This document shows positions 8,618 to 35,353 of a stretch of 35,353 nucleotides of DNA, one piece after another; the stretch's first letter is position 1; each line of letters begins with the position of its first letter. The stretch lies in the IMG/VR virus record IMGVR_UViG_2563367158_000002, one strand, 5' to 3'. Both the position numbers and the translations under genes were made by a program. A model generated the notes under the pieces. The model was not told the DNA's origin. It saw only the letters and a list, made by a program, of their open reading frames with translations, and did not search any database. The stretch comes from a virus. Lineage: Duplodnaviria > Heunggongvirae > Uroviricota > Caudoviricetes.

Positions 8618-9985
8618 TTATCTTTCTCCAACATCCTCTTCTAAAACATGATCTATCTTATCTACAGGAAGATTATCATACTTAGAAAAATCAAAACCAT
8701 CGGGAAGTTTATTTTTTGCTGCTTTTAATATTCTTATTGAATCGTTACCGTTTCTAGAGCGATTTCGCCAATAACATTGATTGTTTTTGTTTGCTCCTTC
8801 AAGCAGGGTTAACATTTGCTCGCTTGAGTAATTAGCCAAGTCTTTGTCAATAAATCTATCAAAATATATATCGGCTCGTTCGAAATCAGCGCTGTTTATA
8901 AAACAAGCAATTCCAAAATCGCGATACTCTGATTCCAAACCTAATTCGCTGCAAACATTTTTAAAAATTGCCAAATGTTGCTGGTTAAGAAAATTTCCAT
9001 TATCTCCGTATTTTTTGTAATATTTTTCAGATATTCTTTTTGTTACGCGATTAATGTGTTCCTCCGGCGATTCAGATATAAAAAAGGCTATTCCAAAATA
9101 AGATATGTTATCTTTTATAATAGGTTTTATGAGTTCTTTTACTGAATCATCCAAGGCGTTATATATTTCTTTCTCCATGGAAATGAACTCAATTAGTGCC
9201 TTAATTGCATCATGGTTATTGGAAATATTGGAGTAATAAGCAGTTTCTGCTTTAACCGAGTCCACCATGGCTTGCCTGTCTTTTTCAAATATCAGTTTCA
9301 TAGCTCTGATATTTATCTCTCTATTTTCTAATGGCTTAGCTTCTTCAGATCTAAACGAAAACTTCCACAACCCCTTGAATATCTTAACTAATACTTCCTT
9401 GTTTAAAGATTTGAAATATTTAACATCTAAGTATTTTTTAAGCGCGTTATCGGAAGGGAATAGGTCCTTTACCTTTTCTAGATCTGCAACAAATGTGGAA
9501 AGTATTTTTTGAGACATAAATGGCGGCTTGCTTAATATTACTTCTATACTATTCCTAATGTCACTTCTAATCATTTCCTGTGTTGGCTCGAATAACGTAT
9601 CTTCGTCACTTATTACTGGATGGGCAGATAAATGCCTGTGTTTTTGAATAAGTAAAACTTTATGGTTTGAAGCAGTGTCTAATAATTGAGTTCTTTCAAA
9701 AACTCTTTTAATAAGCTCTTTTTCCCATTTAGGAGAGTAAGGATCATCGTTTTGTAGTGCTTCAATTTCTAATAATATCTTTTCCGCAACAGCATCGTTA
9801 TGAACATCTCGCAGTTCTTGGAGCTTAAAAATAATATCACATACAACTACTGACCATAGCATCACGGTAGCAGAACGGTAACAACCATTAGCATAGCTCT
9901 TATAAACCTCTTCAAAATATTTTCTAGTTCTTCTATCATAAATTTTACTCTTCTGAGATTCTAATGAGAATATTCTAACGTCCAT
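8618..9985 (-). CDS. Cargo protein at the P2 Z/fun slot, 455 aa, with HEPN-like Rx4H motif (candidate abortive-infection or exclusion protein)
   Basis: Long ORF in an AT-rich island between G and FI; ATG with GGAG RBS; motif R117-H-L-S-A-H122 (plus strand 9620-9637) near the end of a roughly 130-aa helical N-terminal region; no Walker A motif. Whether it is a homolog of P2 Fun(Z) cannot be decided without alignment. Confidence 0.8.
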
Positions 9986-14944: not shown

Positions 14945-15570
14945 AGAGGACTCCCGGTTGTGCCGCCGCTGTCGCCGGGGTGTTTATGGGTATGCAGTAC
15001 CTTACCGTTTGATGAGAGTTCACCGCCGGTGTGTTCAATGTTGCCGTGCATCGTCCCGCCCTTCTGCACTTCCAGCGTGCCGGTAATCAGCCTGTTGGTG
15101 CAGACGACCTCCGGTGTGTCCAGGGTGATGCGGGTTGACGCTTTCACCATGACCACCGGCACCGTGGCAGTAACAGAATCAGAAGCCGTCACGCTGGCCG
15201 TTTTAATTCCGCTTACCGTGAGTGCACTGGTTTCGGGGTCATACTCAATCACCGCCCCGTCAGGGAAACGGATATGCAGGGCATCCGCCGACGCAGACGG
15301 CGCGGGGTTATCGCCGGAATAAATCCCCGGCAGAACGAACGCCGTGTCGAGTTCACCGCCCACGGACAGAATCAGCACCTGTTCCCCCACGGAAGGTGCC
15401 CACCATGTGCGCGAACGACCGGCGCGCTGGGTCAGCCACTGCAGCCAGTCGGTGCACATGCCGCCGGTCTGCACACGGCAGCGACCGGCATTAAGGTCGG
15501 TTTCGACGATAATGCCAGTGCGAATCATATTGCGTATAAAGCGAAGAATTTCATTGTATTGTGCATTCAT
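14941..15570 (-). CDS. V: Baseplate spike protein V (about 209 aa)
   Basis: Start at the internal ATG giving MNAQYNEILRFIRNMI...; the 235-aa ORF in the track begins at an upstream TTG; exact start uncertain. Confidence 0.88.
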   Translation of the reverse strand: MNAQYNEILRFIRNMIRTGIIVETDLNAGRCRVQTGGMCTDWLQWLTQRAGRSRTWWAPSVGEQVLILSVGGELDTAFVLPGIYSGDNPAPSASADALHIRFPDGAVIEYDPETSALTVSGIKTASVTASDSVTATVPVVMVKASTRITLDTPEVVCTNRLITGTLEVQKGGTMHGNIEHTGGELSSNGKVLHTHKHPGDSGGTTGSPL

Positions 15571-15656
15571 TCGATAATAATGATTCTGTACAATCTCGAA
15601 GTAAATCACACCACGATTTCTGGTGCACAGAACAACAAGGGACAACAAAATCCATT
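15571..15656. promoter_or_regulatory. Divergent control region: expected late promoter for V-W-J-I-H-G (minus) and promoter of the antisense cargo gene (plus)
   Basis: Position only; contains the dyad CACCA-N7-TGGTG (15609-15625) and a TACAAT-like hexamer (15588-15593). Confidence 0.35.
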
Positions 15657-16730
15657 ATGAGTACTTACTTTTTCTCGTCAGAAACAATGAAAGAATTGTT
15701 CAAAGATTATCTGGTCTTTTTGAACACGCTGACTCCCAGCACAAACTTTGAATCAAACAGAAACAAAATAATTGCTCAAGCAATAAACTTCATTTCCGAA
15801 AACCCTGAAGATTGGGACAAAAAATCCCAGTACAACATTGCTATGATTGGCGACACCTTTAAAAGTTTCTTAAGAGAAAAGGGGGAAGATAACAACAGCA
15901 TCAACCTTATATTCACTTGCTTTTTTAGATTTATCATTGAACCAAGCATTCTCTCTCCGGAAATAGAGTCTCACTTTTCACCACTAAGAACCATCAAGGA
16001 TTTTGCTCTGTATAACTATAATGAATTCGATGAGCGGAGCAGAGCACAGATAGACTTTTCTCTTAGAGAACTGCCATTAGCAATGGTTAAAGAAGTTTTA
16101 AGCTCCAGCAATGTTGACACATATAAAAAATACATTGATAGTTTAAACGAAGGGCGTCAATTTTTCGAAAAGTGCGACTCCTTCTTAAAGGAGCAACATG
16201 CCAAAATAGAGTCAATTAAAGAGTCATTAAAAGGGTATGAGGTCGCATTTAATTTTGTTGGATTGTTTGATGGCTTTAATTCACTTGGCAAAAAGAAAGA
16301 AAGTGAAATCATGCTATCAAGAATAATTCTTATCATCTTGGCTATAATCATTCCCTCCCCACTGATATACTATGGAATGCATAAATTACCAACTCTCGAA
16401 ACGACAAATGCTGCCACATATTTTATGTCAGCACTACCTTTTGCATCAGTTACATTGATTTTCATGTATTACTTTAGAGTTGTACTGATAAATCATATAT
16501 CGTTACGAACTCAGATTATGCAAATAGAACTCAGAAAGAGCCTTTGTCAGTTCATTCAGAGTTATAGCGACTATTCCTCAGAGATAAGGAAAAACAATCC
16601 GGAAGCGCTTTCAAAATTTGAAGACGTAGTATTTTCAAACATCATGCTATCCGATGATAAGATACCATCTACATTTGATGGTATTGAACAAATAGCATCG
16701 TTAATCAACGCATTGAAAAATGGCAAGTAA
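15657..16730 (+). CDS. Cargo protein at the P2 orf30 slot, 357 aa, membrane-anchored, unknown function
   Basis: AT-rich ORF on the strand opposite to the late operons; start at the ATG (15657) downstream of the V start, since the track's 389-aa version begins at a GTG overlapping V; two hydrophobic segments (IMLSRIILIILAIIIPSPLIYY and ATYFMSALPFASVTLIFMYYF) after a roughly 230-aa soluble N-terminal region; own terminator. Confidence 0.8.
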   Translation: MSTYFFSSETMKELFKDYLVFLNTLTPSTNFESNRNKIIAQAINFISENPEDWDKKSQYNIAMIGDTFKSFLREKGEDNNSINLIFTCFFRFIIEPSILSPEIESHFSPLRTIKDFALYNYNEFDERSRAQIDFSLRELPLAMVKEVLSSSNVDTYKKYIDSLNEGRQFFEKCDSFLKEQHAKIESIKESLKGYEVAFNFVGLFDGFNSLGKKKESEIMLSRIILIILAIIIPSPLIYYGMHKLPTLETTNAATYFMSALPFASVTLIFMYYFRVVLINHISLRTQIMQIELRKSLCQFIQSYSDYSSEIRKNNPEALSKFEDVVFSNIMLSDDKIPSTFDGIEQIASLINALKNGK

Positions 16731-26326: not shown

Positions 26327-27025
26327 TTACAACTTCGTCATTGCTGACTCAAATTCATCATTAAATGGCTTAATTTGAGATGATGTTAGTTTTTTTACGA
26401 ACTTTTTTGTTGTTGTTTGAACTACGATTCTACCTTCACCAAGAGCATTCCCCTGGCATTCTTTTACGAACCATTCTTGAGTTACTGATGTGGTAATACT
26501 CATTGGGATCACAAGCGTTAATATATCTCCGTAGTCTTCTAAAACATGCGGTAACTTGCCAGAGATAAGCGTCCTGGGGTTTACCAATATATTCATTGCT
26601 TTATTATTAGAAAATTGCAACACAACTGATTGAATATTACTCCTTACTTTTCTTTTGTTTGTTATGGTTATTGATATTGCTGTATCTGTAGTGCTAGGTA
26701 AGTACATTGATGGCATTAACACCATGCTATATCGAATAGCAATTTCTTCTGAATTTTCCTTTAGCGAACGGTGTGCTAACAACAATGATGTCGCAACAGC
26801 AGAAAATGCCCCCACCCCAGAAACCCAAGTACCCAACATGGTCAAAAAAGGTATTGTAATTAATTGGTATTTAGTGTCACCATTCAAACCAACACCACTA
26901 TAACCCACGTAACACCCTATAAAAAAGAATAGACAAGCCGTTATTAAAAAAAATAATAAATGCATAGAACTTATATTTTTAAATTTCAGCAACAAACCTC
27001 TTAAAATATATTTGCATCTCTTCAT
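26327..27025 (-). CDS. Cargo membrane protein B at the tin/old slot (232 aa, or 212 aa from an internal ATG), unknown function
   Basis: AT-rich ORF; basic N-terminus then two hydrophobic segments (LLFFLITACLFFFIGCYVGY and ITIPFLTMLGTWVSGVGAFSAVATSLLL) and a roughly 140-aa C-terminal domain; start uncertain (27025 or 26965). Confidence 0.7.
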   Translation of the reverse strand: MKRCKYILRGLLLKFKNISSMHLLFFLITACLFFFIGCYVGYSGVGLNGDTKYQLITIPFLTMLGTWVSGVGAFSAVATSLLLAHRSLKENSEEIAIRYSMVLMPSMYLPSTTDTAISITITNKRKVRSNIQSVVLQFSNNKAMNILVNPRTLISGKLPHVLEDYGDILTLVIPMSITTSVTQEWFVKECQGNALGEGRIVVQTTTKKFVKKLTSSQIKPFNDEFESAMTKL

Positions 27026-27123: not shown

Positions 27124-27855
27124 TCACTCACTTATAATTGATACAACCTCACCTGTTTCTACATTGACACGCGCAGCAATCGTCTGTTTCACCACTCCGC
27201 CATAAGCATTAGTTCCGCGAAACGTGGTTTTCACAATGGCATGCGGGTCTTTATTCAAAATCAGATGATATACCGTTGACACATGTTTATAAGATGAATC
27301 ATCGTTCATATTATCTTTAATTAGTTTTTCCAATGGACGATAAGAACCATCCCAACCACTAAAATTACTCTGAAATGTATCAAGATTGATTTTATTGTTT
27401 AGTGACTTCGGGTCATTTTCATAATCATTAAAGCACCACCCAAGAACATCACCGAGTTTCAACTCATCATCTTTGGTAAATGTATACTCACTCATGCAGG
27501 CATAAAACGCATCTGACGCGGCGGCTGGAACTTCCTTAAAATCAATGTAACTATTCACAATATCGTGTCGTGTTTTCTTTGACTCGTTCCGATATTCCTT
27601 GAGTGTTTTTTCACCATATTCGAATGTTTTTTGGACTTTGTGTTCTGCAACGGTTGATGTTTCAGTTTTAGCAACTGGCTGGCTTTTTTCTGTTGGATAG
27701 AGTATTGAACCAATTATGCTCAATACAAAACCACCTCCGAGATAAACCGCACTTGCACGTTTGCGGTTTGGCATTCGCACCAGTGATGGCCTGATTAACC
27801 CGATGAAGAAAGCAACGAAAAAAGCGAGTGATAGAAAAGCGATTATAGTATCCAT
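27124..27855 (-). CDS. Cargo membrane protein A at the tin/old slot (243 aa), unknown function
   Basis: Start at the ATG with AGGA RBS (aaaaaggatagctATG); two hydrophobic segments (IIAFLSLAFFVAFFIGLI and AVYLGGGFVLSIIGSILY) separated by an RKR loop, then a roughly 180-aa soluble domain; AT-rich. Confidence 0.75.
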   Translation of the reverse strand: MDTIIAFLSLAFFVAFFIGLIRPSLVRMPNRKRASAVYLGGGFVLSIIGSILYPTEKSQPVAKTETSTVAEHKVQKTFEYGEKTLKEYRNESKKTRHDIVNSYIDFKEVPAAASDAFYACMSEYTFTKDDELKLGDVLGWCFNDYENDPKSLNNKINLDTFQSNFSGWDGSYRPLEKLIKDNMNDDSSYKHVSTVYHLILNKDPHAIVKTTFRGTNAYGGVVKQTIAARVNVETGEVVSIISE

Positions 27856-28078
27856 AGCTATCCTTTTTGCATCATCCACATAAAAAATCGACCTCATGTT
27901 AGCAACAGGATGCTTACTTTTGAATATTTGTAAGTTGTTAGCTCTCCAACCTAACTCTTTTCAACCGTCAAAAACCAGCACCAACGCAGTAAAAATATGT
28001 CTGTCAACTAACGCCTCGCTTCGCTCGTTGTTCAACCCCGCCAGCCCTGAAAACAAGTTTCACGACTGGCGGCGTTCT

Positions 28079-28285
28079 CTATCGTCTGCGTGGTGGTGGC
28101 GCAACTCTGGACTGACCGATATCGTTAAACCGTCTGTAATTATCCCGGACTATTTCGGCACACCCGACCAACTCGTCAGGCGTCAGATTTTCGTTGAGCA
28201 TAATCTGCTGTAGACGGTGAACAATGGCCATCAGTTTGATATTTTTAGTTTTATGGTGCGGTATCTCGCCTGGTATTCTGTGCAT
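28079..28285 (-). CDS. Small basic protein (68 aa), translationally coupled to the upstream ASCH-like gene
   Basis: Its ATG overlaps the stop of the preceding gene (TAATG); MHRIPGEIPHHKTKNIKLMAIVHRLQQIM...APPPRRR; no recognisable family; may be non-coding. Confidence 0.4.
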   Translation of the reverse strand: MHRIPGEIPHHKTKNIKLMAIVHRLQQIMLNENLTPDELVGCAEIVRDNYRRFNDIGQSRVAPPPRRR

Positions 28286-28740
28286 TATCCAAGCCACCCA
28301 TTTTGCTTTGCACGCTCCACCTGTTCATCTGAATAGTTCCATATCCCATCCGTAGCAACCACTGCCCCGCCAGACATCCCCGTCTCTGGTTCATACATAA
28401 CAGCAAGGCCGAGCTGATGCATAATTTCATGATTAATTCTGAATACCAGACCACGTTCACTAAGTTCTTTCCAGTTCACAATCTTATATGCGCCCGTATT
28501 AAGCAGCTCAATACTTAGCAAGACATAATCTTCCAGCCAGTCTGACAGGTCAGTAACATCTGTTATCCGGGCTTCAACCTTTCGCCCCGTAAACACACCC
28601 TGCACCCATTCATGCAAAATCAGCGTGTCCCCGCGCTCATAATTACGGTCATTTTTCCGAAACTCTGCGCGTTTCTTTCCTTCCAGCACAAGGTCAAAAT
28701 ATTTGGCGTGCAGCTTTACCTCGTGAATTTTTGCCATCAT
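28285..28740 (-). CDS. ASCH/PUA-like (DUF3850-type) domain protein with C-terminal HExxH motif (about 151 aa)
   Basis: N-terminal pattern IHEVKLHAKYFDLVLEGKKRAEFRKNDRNYERGDTLILHEW resembles ASCH/DUF3850 from memory; C-terminal HEIMH (plus strand 28417-28431); its ATG overlaps the A stop (ATGA), suggesting co-translation in the early operon. Confidence 0.7.
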   Translation of the reverse strand: MMAKIHEVKLHAKYFDLVLEGKKRAEFRKNDRNYERGDTLILHEWVQGVFTGRKVEARITDVTDLSDWLEDYVLLSIELLNTGAYKIVNWKELSERGLVFRINHEIMHQLGLAVMYEPETGMSGGAVVATDGIWNYSDEQVERAKQNGWLG

Positions 28741-31022
28741 TTCCACTCCATTACTATTGAGAATCCCGGCCACTCATCAGCGACCGGATACGTGAATTTT
28801 TTCCCGTCGTAATTTACGGTCGCGCCACGCGCCAGCGCCTCAAGCTCCCATCGCTGCGGCCTGATACCGTTCTGAGCGAGATCAACGCGGATACGGGTGA
28901 TTTGCAATCGTTCAGACCGGGTCAGTCTGGCCGATGGTGCAATTTCATGTGGTTTTAACGGGCTTCCGTTTCTTTGCTGACGATTTGGTGTTCTCAGGTC
29001 GTGTTTTAATGCCCCCCTGAGCGCCCTCACGACCTCCGTGTCGTTCCATTCGATAACACCGTCATCAACCAGATTAAGCACTGCTGCGGCGTGTTCAGAA
29101 GGTGTGGGAGCCGGTAACGAAGTATCACCACCGGTGAGCTTTCCACAGTTATTGACAGGACTCCGAGGCGCGGCGATGCCGCTTTTTAAAGTCAAAGGCT
29201 CAACGACCGGCACTTTCGGAACAATGCGCCAGTCCGTCGTTCTGGTGATATGAATATGACGCGCGCCGAGATGCGGCGCGTAAATGCCGACCACTCTCTC
29301 GACTTCTTCCTCGTACTCGTTAACTTCATCCGACGGACTACGGGCGACCCTGACAGTCTGACAATCGCGCGGGACATTTGCCCCACCCTGCGCGCTGATA
29401 TACAGCGCAAAATCACCACTGTCTGCGGCGGCGCGTGCAGCCTCGACGCGCTCGTCAAACTCATCAGCAATGCTGACGCCGCGAGGCAATTTGCGTAGTT
29501 CACGGTAAGCCCCCATTGTCGGCAGGCCAACCGTTTTAAATTGCGGAATGCGCCACGTTGACGCCCATGCGGTAACAGCCGCGGCAGTATCTTTCAGCGG
29601 TCTGCCGGTATCGTTATCGAGCTGCCCATCCAGTGCATAGCCGTCGATATTTTTTGAGATGTATTTCGCGATATACCCCGCAGCACCGCCCCGATTAAGA
29701 TGTTTTGCCTGAAAACGGTTTCGCGCAGCTCCTCTTTCGTCGCCATCCTCTTTGAGCGCGTAGCGACGCATGATTTCGATAATCTGGTTACGCTGGCGTG
29801 GATTACAAAAAAGCATCATATGCCAGTGCGGCGTTCCGTCGTGGTGTGGCTCGACGACTCGCAAACCGTAGACCTGTAAATTATTATCCTTGAATGCCGT
29901 GCGCATCAGGCTCCAGATACGGCAGAGATAACGCTGCGCATCCTTTGGATTAAATGCCTCATCGTTCCAGCCGTGATTTAGCTGGACGGTTTTACTTTCG
30001 CCTTTTCCAACCTGACGTGTCGGGTGATACTTTGACGGCGCGGTCAGCGTGATAAACATCCCCACATCACCTTCTGCGGCGGCGTAACGCTCAATACCGG
30101 CAATGGTGTTCATCAGCTCCATCCGGCGAATTTCAGGATTAGAAATACTGCCCATCACCTTACTGATAAGGTCGATGCGCTCGCCTGTTTCCCTGTTTTC
30201 GAGATCACACGATTTTAGAAATTCCAGATTTGCCTGGCGGCGTGCACGCACATCACGAATGGCATGTTTACTGGCATAAGGAGAACGGTCTTTATTGACC
30301 TCCCCGACAGCAATCAGTAACGCCTCATGCCAGCGCATACGCTGGCCTTTAAGCTGACTAATCCACCACTCATCGTTAAACAGACGGGCAATGGCAGAAT
30401 ATGCCTGCCTCGTGGTCATCTGTCCTTTACGGTATTTTTTCCAGTAGAGAGGGGAAATATTGAAAGCACGTGCAGCGCCAGCAACATGACCATAGAGGTG
30501 AGCCTGCGCCTCATCCGTAAACAGCGATTCTTTTTCGCCATGCGCATCCACCCAGGCATCGCTGAGTTCCTCATACATCATGAAAAGCTGCGATGAGATA
30601 CGGGCGGCAAACTTTTTCAGCTCCTTGTCATTCATTCCCGGCAGGCGCGCATAGTGGTCACGCTCAGCCAGAAACAGCATCGACGCGTCGGTGTTCATTT
30701 CATGGCGCTGATTCACACGCTCAATGCGCGGCCATAAACGACGCTGAAAAGTGGATGTGAGGAAATAAAACCCGTGCACCGGGCTTTTATTGCGCCGGAT
30801 GTAGTCATAGCGTGACGTAAACAGCGAGCGCAAAAAGTAAGGCAGGCGGTTAATCGTGGATAAAACACCTTGCACCTGACGCATCTCGTCACGTGTAAGG
30901 GGTCTTTCGCGCCCGACAGCCTCGCGTGGCGCGTTCCATGCATAAGCACCGGTAAACGCCTTACCGGTGCCTGCAGCAAATGCTGACGGAGGGACAAAAT
31001 GCCCGGAGGCTTTAACGGCCAT
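28737..31022 (-). CDS. A: Replication initiation protein A (rolling-circle nickase, 761 aa)
   Basis: Start at the first ATG (MAVKASGHFVPPSAFAAG...) giving the P2 gpA length; the track ORF begins at an upstream TTG. Confidence 0.93.
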   Translation of the reverse strand: MAVKASGHFVPPSAFAAGTGKAFTGAYAWNAPREAVGRERPLTRDEMRQVQGVLSTINRLPYFLRSLFTSRYDYIRRNKSPVHGFYFLTSTFQRRLWPRIERVNQRHEMNTDASMLFLAERDHYARLPGMNDKELKKFAARISSQLFMMYEELSDAWVDAHGEKESLFTDEAQAHLYGHVAGAARAFNISPLYWKKYRKGQMTTRQAYSAIARLFNDEWWISQLKGQRMRWHEALLIAVGEVNKDRSPYASKHAIRDVRARRQANLEFLKSCDLENRETGERIDLISKVMGSISNPEIRRMELMNTIAGIERYAAAEGDVGMFITLTAPSKYHPTRQVGKGESKTVQLNHGWNDEAFNPKDAQRYLCRIWSLMRTAFKDNNLQVYGLRVVEPHHDGTPHWHMMLFCNPRQRNQIIEIMRRYALKEDGDERGAARNRFQAKHLNRGGAAGYIAKYISKNIDGYALDGQLDNDTGRPLKDTAAAVTAWASTWRIPQFKTVGLPTMGAYRELRKLPRGVSIADEFDERVEAARAAADSGDFALYISAQGGANVPRDCQTVRVARSPSDEVNEYEEEVERVVGIYAPHLGARHIHITRTTDWRIVPKVPVVEPLTLKSGIAAPRSPVNNCGKLTGGDTSLPAPTPSEHAAAVLNLVDDGVIEWNDTEVVRALRGALKHDLRTPNRQQRNGSPLKPHEIAPSARLTRSERLQITRIRVDLAQNGIRPQRWELEALARGATVNYDGKKFTYPVADEWPGFSIVMEWK

Positions 31023-32598: not shown

Positions 32599-32765
32599 TT
32601 CCAGACCCTCCGGCTTTTCAGAAAGGTCAGAACCTTTTTTAACGGACTCTGTTTTTTGGTGCGGATAATGATTCCCTTACGCCCCTTACCGTGGGTGATG
32701 GTGAAGTCAATCGCCCTGGGGCTTTCGTTACGCAATAACTGAGCAATACAACGAGGCTCATTCAT
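32595..32765 (-). CDS. Small basic protein (56 aa) between cox and B, positional equivalent of P2 orf78
   Basis: ATG with AAGGAG RBS; the track ORF (64 aa) starts at an upstream GTG. Confidence 0.6.
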   Translation of the reverse strand: MNEPRCIAQLLRNESPRAIDFTITHGKGRKGIIIRTKKQSPLKKVLTFLKSRRVWK

Positions 32766-32775
32766 ACGGTTCTCC

Positions 32776-33051
32776 TTAACGTGGTTCACCGAGACCTAAC
32801 CACATCAACCAGCCGTCACGAATCTCTTTAGGACGGCTTTCATAAGCCAGTTTTAGTCCGTTATTCCATGCCGGAAGGTATACCCAATATTCACCAGCAC
32901 GCCCCGATACTGACTGAGGGTCAGTAATCTCAATAACTGGTAATTTCCCTTTCTCAATCATGCCCCTTACAGCTCTTGGAGTTTTACCAATGAGTTTTGC
33001 AAACTCCTGATAAGGCACGGCATCAGTCACGCTTACAAGCTGTCTATTCAT
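32776..33051 (-). CDS. cox: Cox (excisionase and lytic-switch repressor, 91 aa)
   Basis: P2 Cox length; first gene of the early operon, divergent from C. Confidence 0.9.
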   Translation of the reverse strand: MNRQLVSVTDAVPYQEFAKLIGKTPRAVRGMIEKGKLPVIEITDPQSVSGRAGEYWVYLPAWNNGLKLAYESRPKEIRDGWLMWLGLGEPR

Positions 33052-33172
33052 CTGCTACGATTCTCCCTTAGTGCTTCTAATGGCTCCTAATGGCTAATTA
33101 TTGCCTAAAAGGATAACTCCAGAAGCACAACATTTCACACTATCAGCAAGAAATTACGCAATCGGAGTAATT
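33052..33172. promoter_or_regulatory. Immunity switch region between cox and C, with direct repeats CTAATGGCT (33077-33085 and 33087-33095) as candidate C operator
   Basis: Two identical 9-bp direct repeats one helical turn apart between the divergent genes; P2-like C repressors bind direct repeats. Promoter hexamers not confidently assigned. Confidence 0.5.
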
Positions 33173-33472
33173 ATGTCAATAGACGTTTCGGAGAAGTTGA
33201 AGCTAATCCGTGAATCTGAAAGGTTAAACCGTAAAGAATTCAGTGAATTAACTGGTGTAGCCTACAGCTCACTTTCGAGCTATGAGAGCCGGTCAAAAAA
33301 CGCTGGAGTTGAAGCCATAATGAAGGTCTTACAACATCCTAGATTTACTAAATATACTTTGTGGTTCATGACTGATCAGGTAGCTCCAGAAGCCGGGCAA
33401 ATTGCGCCCGCTCTCGCACACTTTGGGCAAAACGAAACAACGTCGCCCCACTCCGGTCAAAAGACTGGTTAA
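33173..33472 (+). CDS. C: C immunity repressor (99 aa)
   Basis: Start at the ATG with GGAG RBS (MSIDVSEKLKLIRESE...) giving the P2 C length; helix-turn-helix-like N-terminus; the track ORF begins at an upstream TTG. Confidence 0.88.
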   Translation: MSIDVSEKLKLIRESERLNRKEFSELTGVAYSSLSSYESRSKNAGVEAIMKVLQHPRFTKYTLWFMTDQVAPEAGQIAPALAHFGQNETTSPHSGQKTG

Positions 33473-33587
33473 CAATTTATCGTGAATATATTCATCACAA
33501 GTGCCTACTATTGGTGGCTAAATTTCAGCCACCACGAAAAAAGCGATTAGTAGTAGCAAAAAAAAGTACCACTCGGAGGGTTTTCTG

Positions 33588-34601
33588 ATGGCAATCAAAA
33601 AACTCGATGATGGTCGATATGAAGTGGACATCCGCCCTACTGGACGTAACGGAAAACGCATCCGTAGGAAGTTTGATAAGAAAAGCGAAGCTGTCGCTTT
33701 CGAAAAATACACGTTGTACAACCACCACAATAAAGAATGGCTATCAAAACCAACAGACAAACGACGTCTGTCGGAACTGACACAGATCTGGTGGGATTTA
33801 AAGGGTAAACACGAAGAGCATGGGAAATCTAATCTTGGAAAAATTGAAATCTTCACAAAAATAACGAATGACCCATGCGCATTTCAAATCACGAAATCCC
33901 TTATCAGCCAGTACTGCGCCACCCGAAGAAGTCAGGGTATTAAACCTTCGAGTATCAATCGTGATTTAACATGTATTAGCGGCATGTTTACAGCCCTGAT
34001 TGAAGCGGAGTTATTCTTTGGTGAGCACCCTATCAGAGGGACAAAGAGGCTTAAGGAGGAAAAACCAGAAACAGGCTATCTCACACAGGAAGAAATTGCC
34101 TTACTGCTTGCAGCACTTGACGGCGACAATAAAAAGATTGCGATTCTTTGCCTGAGTACAGGAGCACGTTGGGGAGAAGCAGCTCGTTTGAAAGCAGAAA
34201 ATATCATCCATAACCGCGTCACGTTTGTTAAAACGAAAACAAACAAACCACGCACCGTCCCGATCTCAGAGGCTGTTGCCAAAATGATCGCGGATAACAA
34301 ACGAGGTTTTTTATTCCCTGATGCTGATTACCCTCGCTTCAGACGAACAATGAAAGCAATAAAACCGGATTTGCCAACGGGGCAAGCCACACATGCACTA
34401 AGGCACAGCTTTGCCACTCATTTCATGATTAATGGAGGAAGTATTATCACGCTACAACGGATACTAGGTCACACGCGGATTGAGCAAACTATGGTTTACG
34501 CTCATTTTGCGCCAGAGTACCTTCAGGACGCCATTTCTCTTAATCCGCTAAGAGGTGGTACTGAGGCCGAGAGTGTCCACACAGTGTCCACAGTAGAGTA
34601 A
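33588..34601 (+). CDS. int: Tyrosine integrase (337 aa)
   Basis: P2 Int length; C-terminal catalytic residues (ARWGE...HALRHSFATHF...MVYAHF); adjacent to attR. Confidence 0.93.
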   Translation: MAIKKLDDGRYEVDIRPTGRNGKRIRRKFDKKSEAVAFEKYTLYNHHNKEWLSKPTDKRRLSELTQIWWDLKGKHEEHGKSNLGKIEIFTKITNDPCAFQITKSLISQYCATRRSQGIKPSSINRDLTCISGMFTALIEAELFFGEHPIRGTKRLKEEKPETGYLTQEEIALLLAALDGDNKKIAILCLSTGARWGEAARLKAENIIHNRVTFVKTKTNKPRTVPISEAVAKMIADNKRGFLFPDADYPRFRRTMKAIKPDLPTGQATHALRHSFATHFMINGGSIITLQRILGHTRIEQTMVYAHFAPEYLQDAISLNPLRGGTEAESVHTVSTVE

Positions 34602-34680
34602 CGTTTAAGGGCTTTCAGTGGTAATTTATGCCGCTCAAACCCGCATTGTACCGTTGAAAGCCCCTACTGGTGACACCCTA

Positions 34681-34708
34681 AATCTCCCTTACACGGGCTT
34701 ATTTTTTA
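34681..34708. repeat. attR core, 28-bp direct repeat identical to 1507-1534
   Basis: Exact repeat read in the sequence; about 80 bp downstream of the int stop. Confidence 0.85.
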
Positions 34709-35035: not shown

Positions 35036-35353
35036 TCACTCTCCACATTTGAATGTCAGACGAGCGACGCCATGTAATCCTGCACCTTCTGTCTTCAGGT
35101 CAACTATCTGCATTTTTTTGCCCTGAGTAACACAGAAATGAACTGCATCATTTTTTACTATATTTTCTGCACCAGATATTCTACCCCTGGCTAAAGAAGC
35201 TTCGGCTTCGGTGTAGTATTGGTTATCGAGTTTACGCTGAATATTACTTTTATATGCAAGGCCAAATTTACCGATACTTGTCTCATCATTATGCACAGCA
35301 CAACCAGACATAAGAAAAACACTAATTAATGATATAGCAGCTATCTTTTTCAC
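35036..35353 (-). CDS. yegR: Host lipoprotein-like protein YegR (105 aa)
   Basis: MKKIAAISLISVFLMSGC signal peptide and lipobox; recognised as YegR, which flanks the cyaR/ogrK locus in E. coli K-12; start codon is at the window edge. Confidence 0.8.
   Translation of the reverse strand: MKKIAAISLISVFLMSGCAVHNDETSIGKFGLAYKSNIQRKLDNQYYTEAEASLARGRISGAENIVKNDAVHFCVTQGKKMQIVDLKTEGAGLHGVARLTFKCGE

Follow-up and report, generated by a model that had tools for sequence, protein, structure and literature searches.

Ten-base-pair-phased repeats beside cox in a P2 Hy dis-type immunity switch are best read as putative Cox sites over Pc, with the predicted C operator at Pe

The stretch of DNA analysed here, 35,353 nucleotides long and referred to below as the window, holds a P2-like (Peduovirus) prophage between yegQ (1-1362) and yegR (35036-35353). 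The right end of the prophage carries, in order, the genes B, orf78, cox, C and int (33588-34601), of which cox and C are divergent, and the region of interest, 33052-33172, coincides precisely with the 121-bp spacer that separates the start of cox (33051, - strand) from that of C (33173, + strand; Table 1). The Cox protein is identical to P2 Cox at 76 of 91 residues (84%), with the differences in the N-terminal winged-HTH half. The C protein matches P2 C at 64 of 99 residues (65%); the two proteins agree throughout the C-terminal third and diverge in the helix-turn-helix part. Of the four base-contacting positions that PMC2995052 lists as poorly conserved, two are changed there, Tyr36 to Ser and Arg41 to Ser. 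The first-pass annotation, which had described the N-terminus of C as divergent, is borne out by these comparisons. A look-up of protein clusters returned generic names only for C and Cox. The list of open reading frames additionally offers a TTG-started extension of C (33101-33472, 123 aa), and the GenBank entry ADT75726 from E. coli W is likewise 123 aa long; this longer form is probably an annotation artefact, the true start being the ATG at 33173-33175 and the product 99 aa long, as in P2 and in E. coli B REL606.

Two convergent promoters, Pc and Pe, are expected in the spacer. In P2, as annotated, the Pe -35 overlaps the start of C and the Pc -10 lies 38-43 bp from the cox ATG. A scan of 32900-33300 for consensus promoters and terminators called none, including no sigma-70 promoter in the spacer and no Pe -10, and Pc and Pe are therefore placed by homology only. 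An RNA element at the switch was considered and rejected, as an Rfam search of 32700-33600 gave no match. Also rejected was an 8-bp inverted repeat (33071-78 / 33121-28) as a functional hairpin or site, its right arm being polymorphic within the class to which the switch belongs.

Table 1. Features of the switch region and of the attP end of the prophage, in window coordinates.
Feature	Position	Strand	Remarks
cox, 91 aa	32776..33051	-	ORF; Pfam Phage_Cox, E = 1.7e-42; Cox represses Pc and acts as excisionase
cox-C spacer, 121 bp, with convergent Pc (rightward) and Pe (leftward)	33052..33172	.	layout after P2 record AF063097
Fourth, weaker unit, CTTAGTGCTT	33067-33076	+	10-bp register; PWM score -0.65
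Repeat copy 1, CTAATGGCT	33077..33085	+	read as a putative cox box; PWM rank 12th of ~70,700 positions; invariant in 50 loci of the class
Repeat copy 2, CTAATGGCT	33087..33095	+	read as a putative cox box; PWM rank 24th; overlaps the position homologous to the P2 Pc -10
Degenerate third phased box, ATTATTGCCT	33097..33106	+	10-bp register; PWM score 5.2
Polymorphic 25-bp patch	33126..33150	.	between box array and Pe -10; 11/25 positions vary in 50 loci
Pe -10 (inferred), TAATTT on the - strand	33151..33156	-	17 bp from the -35; read by analogy with P2
Predicted C operator half-site, TCGGAGTA (TACTCCGA on the Pe strand)	33162..33169	+	fits Hy dis operator geometry (PMC1904268)
C immunity repressor, 99 aa, P2 Hy dis / E. 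coli B class	33173..33472	+	ORF; REL606 DNA identity; primer match
Pe -35, TTGACA, perfect, overlapping the C start codon	33174..33179	-	ATGTCAA motif in 9/9 classes; P2 annotated alike
Predicted C operator half-site, TCGGAGAA, one mismatch, in the first C codons	33188..33195	+	26 bp from the first half-site; matches the published 'natural mutation'
attP arm, int stop to att core	34602..34678	.	P2-type cox-box-like sites at 34605, 34625, 34635 and 34655; 10-bp phase read by eye
Presumed P2 att core (reverse complement of AAAAAATAAGCCCGTGTAAGGGAGATT)	34679..34707	-	prophage end next to yegR

Beyond the switch, the att end and the cargo of the prophage deserve a brief description. Int arm-type sites, with TGTCCACA repeated at an 11-bp offset, lie at 34572-34593 within the last codons of int, and the attP arm that follows runs up to 34679-34707, whose reverse complement, AAAAAATAAGCCCGTGTAAGGGAGATT, we take to be the P2 att core sequence. 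The arm ranks with the 80-bp windows that best fit the published cox-box consensus, and its site at 34605 scores 7.9 with the PWM of Pc boxes described below; within the same arm, TAATTTATGCC (34621-34631) closely resembles TAATTATTGCC (33095-33105), the third Pc box. As for cargo, a 455-aa protein encoded at 8618-9985 (- strand), for which no Pfam match was obtained, matches the PADLOC model PD-T7-3 for anti-phage defence (E = 3e-168), and its gene sits between the tail sheath and tail-fibre assembly genes, the Z/fun cargo position of P2. Two adjacent ORFs on the - strand, 26327-27025 and 27124-27897 (232 and 257 aa), gave no Pfam or PADLOC match and make a candidate uncharacterised cargo pair, located as they are at the old/tin hotspot of P2, with the portal/terminase end on one side and the replication gene A on the other; the next ORF, at 28285-28773 (162 aa), has DUF3850/ASCH and DUF7415 domains. 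A 389-aa ORF on the opposite strand (15561-16730, +), likewise with no Pfam or PADLOC match, occupies the orf30 position of P2, between the baseplate gene V and the tail-completion genes.

The repeat that drew attention to the spacer is the 9-mer CTAATGGCT. The first-pass annotation had placed it twice in tandem between the divergent cox and C, and both copies are indeed exact, at 33077-33085 and 33087-33095 on the + strand with a period of 10 bp; a repeat search reported the same pair as GCTTCTAATG/GCTCCTAATG. Measured from the cox start codon, the pair is at 26-44 bp; its distance from the C start is 78-96 bp, and from the inferred Pe -10 at least 56 bp. It is the sole instance in the whole 35-kb window of an exact direct repeat of at least 9 bp at a 10-bp offset and, with offsets of 9-12 allowed, the sole other repeat in the window is the Int arm-site repeat at 34572. 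Among 20,000 dinucleotide shuffles of the 121-bp spacer, 0.035% contained a repeat of at least 9 bp at offset 10 (P ~3.5e-4), and 0.9% did so at offsets 9-39. On the other hand, as a single word with at most one mismatch CTAATGGCT is found eight times in the window against 6.1 expected, and so is not special as a bare word. The non-random part is the tandem arrangement, the 9-mer itself being unremarkable, and chance is no explanation for it. Two further units, one to either side of the pair, continue the 10-bp register, the downstream one being aligned with ATAATGCCT of P2 and TTAATTGCC of other switch classes.

The switch as a whole turned out to have a close and well-studied counterpart. 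The 825 bp at 32776-33600 of the window extend from cox through the spacer and C into the start of int and show 100% identity to a defective P2-like prophage, that of E. coli B REL606, which sits at the same chromosomal site (yegQ-prophage-yegR). The prophage in the window is complete. That of REL606 (2,100,409-2,122,347) is decayed, with D, tail tube, portal and morphogenesis genes truncated, and has other cargo, namely a glycosyltransferase and an ABC-three-component system with an AAA ATPase. An identical switch combined with different cargo suggests a common immunity cassette and the exchange of cargo hotspots around it. P2 Hy dis presumably owes its immunity region to the prophage of E. 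coli B, and the class has been studied, and characterised biochemically, since at least 2001. Together with that presumed origin and the identity to REL606, an exact match of the P2 Hy dis primer A3-44 (CCTTTCAGATTCACGG) at 33208-33223 places the switch in the P2 Hy dis class. The primer was used for the Hy dis operator fragment, and the characterised immunity classes of P2-type C are P2, P2 Hy dis and WPhi (PMC1904268).

For Hy dis C, the published identity to P2 C is 63% (PMC1904268), against the 65% seen here; C is identical to WPhi C at 49 of 99 residues here against a published 44%, and the window Cox has Thr24-Pro25 where PMC3936717 gives Hy dis Cox a Thr at 25, two discrepancies that alignment differences could explain. 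A megablast search of a phage collection returned one near-identical phage, vB_EcoM-720R8, with P2 matching the flanks and not the centre, and the same 361 bp are present at 95% identity or more in 349 of 5426 complete E. coli genomes (~6%), the exact C and Cox proteins occurring on at least 1000 contigs. To judge from its sequence, the switch is of the immunity type of P2 Hy dis (E. coli B), with no detectable difference, and the repeat finding is an ordinary one, already known. P2 Hy dis is heteroimmune to P2 and WPhi in superinfection tests (PMC1904268), and the same heteroimmunity would carry over to the window through sequence identity. The recognition of the element as a P2-type switch in the first-pass annotation was correct, as was the statement that P2 half-sites lie about two helical turns apart, the distance being 22 bp (AF063097; PMC1904268). 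Of the distinct immunity that it proposed, the difference from P2 stands, both for C and for the operator, but the specificity is not new, being that of the P2 Hy dis class.

Where the C operator should lie can be asked of the characterised systems. The operators of P2, Hy dis and WPhi are all at Pe near the start of C, with spacings of 22, 26 and 34 bp. In P2, O1 and O2 are two copies of ATCTAAAC that are 22 bp apart, flank the Pe -10 and adjoin the C start (AF063097), while the Hy dis operator consists of two 8-bp half-sites, 26 bp centre-to-centre, that flank the Pe -35 and contain one natural mismatch (PMC1904268). The window has one direct repeat with at least seven of eight matching positions at an offset of 15-40 bp flanking the Pe -35, and this is TCGGAGTA/TCGGAGAA. 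Its unique fit to the published Hy dis geometry points to an operator there, away from the CTAATGGCT repeats, and we predict the immunity operator to be TCGGAG(T/A)A at 33162/33188. This pair, like O1/O2, is a direct repeat that would be read by a 99-aa HTH repressor of the same family, and it is the counterpart of O1/O2 in the window; the CTAATGGCT repeats differ from O1/O2 in sequence, in spacing and in the end of the spacer that they occupy, and have no resemblance to TCGGAG(T/A)A. The CTAATGGCT pair furthermore overlies Pc, whereas the repeats of a C operator would be expected at Pe, flanking the -10 or the -35, and the pair does not co-vary with the recognition helix of C, the TAATKG boxes to which it belongs occurring with at least nine C/operator types. 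With the CTAATGGCT repeats over Pc and a Hy dis-type pair at Pe, the one-turn spacing that had been taken for an operator property does not characterise this immunity system.

The nearest other C class, with a 78% identical C, is represented by two loci of the Klebsiella phage Kp4846-1 type (L055/L084), in which AAAGAGG / TCAGAGAAG flank the same TTGACA -35. This putative operator has a spacing of ~26-27 bp and an AGAG core in place of CGGAG, and it appears to be related to that of the window; the two could be a natural pair for studying a shift in C specificity.

For a comparison across the family, 80 IMG/VR loci encoding close Cox relatives were sorted into switch classes, and nine of these were aligned: that of the window, that of P2 and seven others. 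The cox-proximal 60 bp are alignable in all nine, with the consensus AATTGCTCTTAATGG..T.TAATTGCC, and the C-proximal half is not. A 10-bp-phased array of TTAATKGC boxes is present in all nine C/operator classes; in the eight classes other than that of the window, the boxes stand at offsets 5/15/25/35 in strict 10-bp phase and have the consensus TTAATTGCTT. A PWM built from the phased boxes of these eight classes, the window being left out, placed both copies of CTAATGGCT high among all positions (Table 1); equally good single sites were found in AT-rich cargo DNA, and the PWM thus supports the homology of the repeats and is no stand-alone detector. Across five classes with different C HTH, the mean identity is 80% in the cox-proximal block and 57% in the C-proximal 62 bp. 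Some of the five have direct repeats of their own on the C-proximal side, for example TTCCTTAT twice in L064; L078, a further class, has TAGAGAAT twice. P2 and L080 have a common C HTH (97%) and common ATCTAAAC operators. On these alignments, the C-proximal repeats track C, and the cox-proximal phased boxes track Cox and Pc. As the box array is kept across nine classes while the C-proximal half changes with C, cox boxes are the best reading of the repeats. WPhi is arranged in the same way, though its sequences are unrelated, with GTCCYTTCTAGG twice near cox and (G/A)GTCACCAAT twice, 34 bp apart, near C; its Cox and that of the window have 39 identical residues. The WPhi Cox site, reportedly described in 2009, is said to be an imperfect 12-nt direct repeat, and we assume that the GTCCYTTCTAGG repeats are this published site.

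The published data on Cox fit this picture. P2 Cox protects at least 70 bp. Its cox boxes, of consensus TTAAA(G/C)NC(A/C), number six or more; they begin every 10-11 bp, with one protomer to each turn of the helix, and extend over the Pc -10 and -35. A P2 cox mutant is complemented by Hy dis Cox, which can replace P2 Cox (PMC3936717). The Apl sites of phage 186 are one helical turn apart as well (PMC7498355). Given the phasing published for Cox and Apl, one-turn spacing is a signature of a Cox site and not of a C operator. In a pairwise alignment, the CTAATGGCT repeats fall on TTTAATGTCT/TATAATGCCT of P2, the annotated Pc -10 region, and TATAAT, the annotated Pc -10 itself, stands opposite 33086-33091; the P2 Pc start is ~50 nt from the cox start, as calculated from a primer position of 155 nt minus a cDNA of 105 nt (PMC1904263). 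The array in the window has box starts 10 bp apart (33077 and 33087, with weaker units at 33067 and 33097), it overlaps the P2-homologous Pc -10 region beside the cox start, and it accompanies a P2-type Cox (Pfam Phage_Cox, 84% identical to P2 Cox) whatever the class of C. Compared with TTAAASNCM, each copy of CTAATGGCT agrees at five of the eight specified positions and has three mismatches; the same consensus gives 908 sites in the window at two mismatches or fewer, and is therefore too degenerate to discriminate.

Very probably, then, the CTAATGGCT copies belong to a putative cox-box array in 10-bp phase over a weak Pc, of which they form the two best-preserved units; that Cox binds these two boxes we infer from homology and from the published P2 data. 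The array agrees with the P2 cox boxes at Pc in position relative to cox and Pc, in direct orientation and in the 10-11 bp phasing, but the P2 boxes differ from one another (TTTAATGTC, TATAATGCC, TTTAGTGCC), whereas two adjacent boxes in the window are identical 9-mers. The Apl sites of 186, between pR and pL, and the Cox site of WPhi are likewise direct repeats on the cox- or apl-proximal side of a convergent-promoter switch, although the sequences of the sites are unrelated to those of the window and the proteins are different or distant.

Under this reading, the switch would work as follows. Once Pe fires and Cox is made, Cox monomers would bind successive boxes in 33067-33106, on one face of the helix and one per turn, with the two perfect CTAATGGCT copies as the likely nucleation point, and would form an oligomeric filament, wrapping and bending the DNA. 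Both the -10 and the -35 of Pc would then be occluded, the synthesis of C and Int would stop and the phage would be committed to lytic growth; the same Cox may bind the similar phased boxes in the att arm next to int and so direct excision. In the lysogen, dimers of C would sit at TCGGAGTA (33162) and TCGGAGAA (33188), on either side of the Pe -35, blocking Pe and setting the immunity specificity.

Variation within the class is distributed very unevenly over the spacer. Among 50 IMG/VR loci of the Hy dis class, none of the 74 positions in 33052-33125, the stretch with the box array, is variable, and the adjoining patch (33126-33150) varies at nearly half of its positions, with nine transitions, two transversions and common alleles at 33127 (A/G) and 33141 (T/C). 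The same loci vary at 3 of 300 positions in C and at 15 of 276 in cox; no other 25-bp window in the 3.26 kb examined is as polymorphic as the patch, whose variation is far above that at synonymous sites in C. The patch is probably the zone in which the Pe and Pc transcripts overlap, and relaxed constraint, transcription-associated mutation or tuning of the switch are possible causes.

Other readings of the repeats have to be weighed against Cox boxes. That the CTAATGGCT copies are C operator half-sites one helical turn apart, and define a new immunity specificity, might be argued from the binding of direct repeats by P2-family C repressors, from the divergence of C in its DNA-binding part and from repeats that are perfect and invariant within the class. 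This account, however, has to contend with three characterised operators that lie at Pe by the C start while CTAATGGCT is at the far end over Pc, and with the identity of the switch to that of the E. coli B / Hy dis type, for which the published operator stands on both sides of the Pe -35; a matching operator pair is present at 33162/33188, its TCGGAG(T/A)A is unlike CTAATGGCT, and the TAATKG type of box persists despite different helix-3 sequences of C. The idea is largely refuted already, and we hold it to be very improbable.

The repeats could also be mere core elements of Pc, with the -10-like CTAAT (TCTAAT, CCTAAT), or a neutral 10-bp slippage duplication, in either case with no dedicated binding protein. 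TCTAAT agrees with TATAAT at five of six positions, the P2 Pc -10 TATAAT aligns with the second copy, and the copies are more alike than the boxes of other classes, as a recent duplication or conversion would make them. A single hexamer, nevertheless, needs no strict 10-bp phase of three to four boxes such as all nine classes keep, and zero polymorphism over 74 bp argues against neutrality; with cox boxes published over the Pc -10 and -35 (PMC3936717), promoter and Cox site are expected to coincide and are not mutually exclusive. On balance, we consider a promoter or slippage origin alone improbable. Slimmer still is the chance that the repeats bind another factor, a host nucleoid protein such as IHF or Fis, or Int: the region is phased and has a high AT content, and the 8-bp inverted repeat at 33071-78 / 33121-28 brackets the array, but that repeat is broken by the polymorphisms at 33126-33128, the Int arm sites differ in sequence (TGTGGACA type, 34572-34593), and nothing in this analysis or in the literature examined supports another factor.

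If the repeats are Cox boxes, their homogenisation to identical 9-mers with a -10-like CTAAT invites a further thought, which we regard as rather unlikely: the two boxes could be an unusually strong Cox nucleation site and the Pc -10 at once, with Cox and RNA polymerase competing for the same bases, and this could give the switch a set-point unlike that of P2. Were this true, the rate of spontaneous induction, for example, would differ from that of P2, and the patch at 33126-33150 could tune the set-point or be a scar of head-on transcription.

Overall, the finding carries little weight as a discovery, the switch being a textbook convergent-promoter switch of the P2 family, of a known class and present in ~6% of complete E. 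coli genomes. What is gained is a corrected annotation, in which the one-turn-phased repeats near cox would be Cox sites over Pc and the wider pair near C, at Pe, the C operator. For the prediction of immunity groups from sequence, the C-proximal repeats and the recognition helix of C should be used, and not the cox-proximal array.
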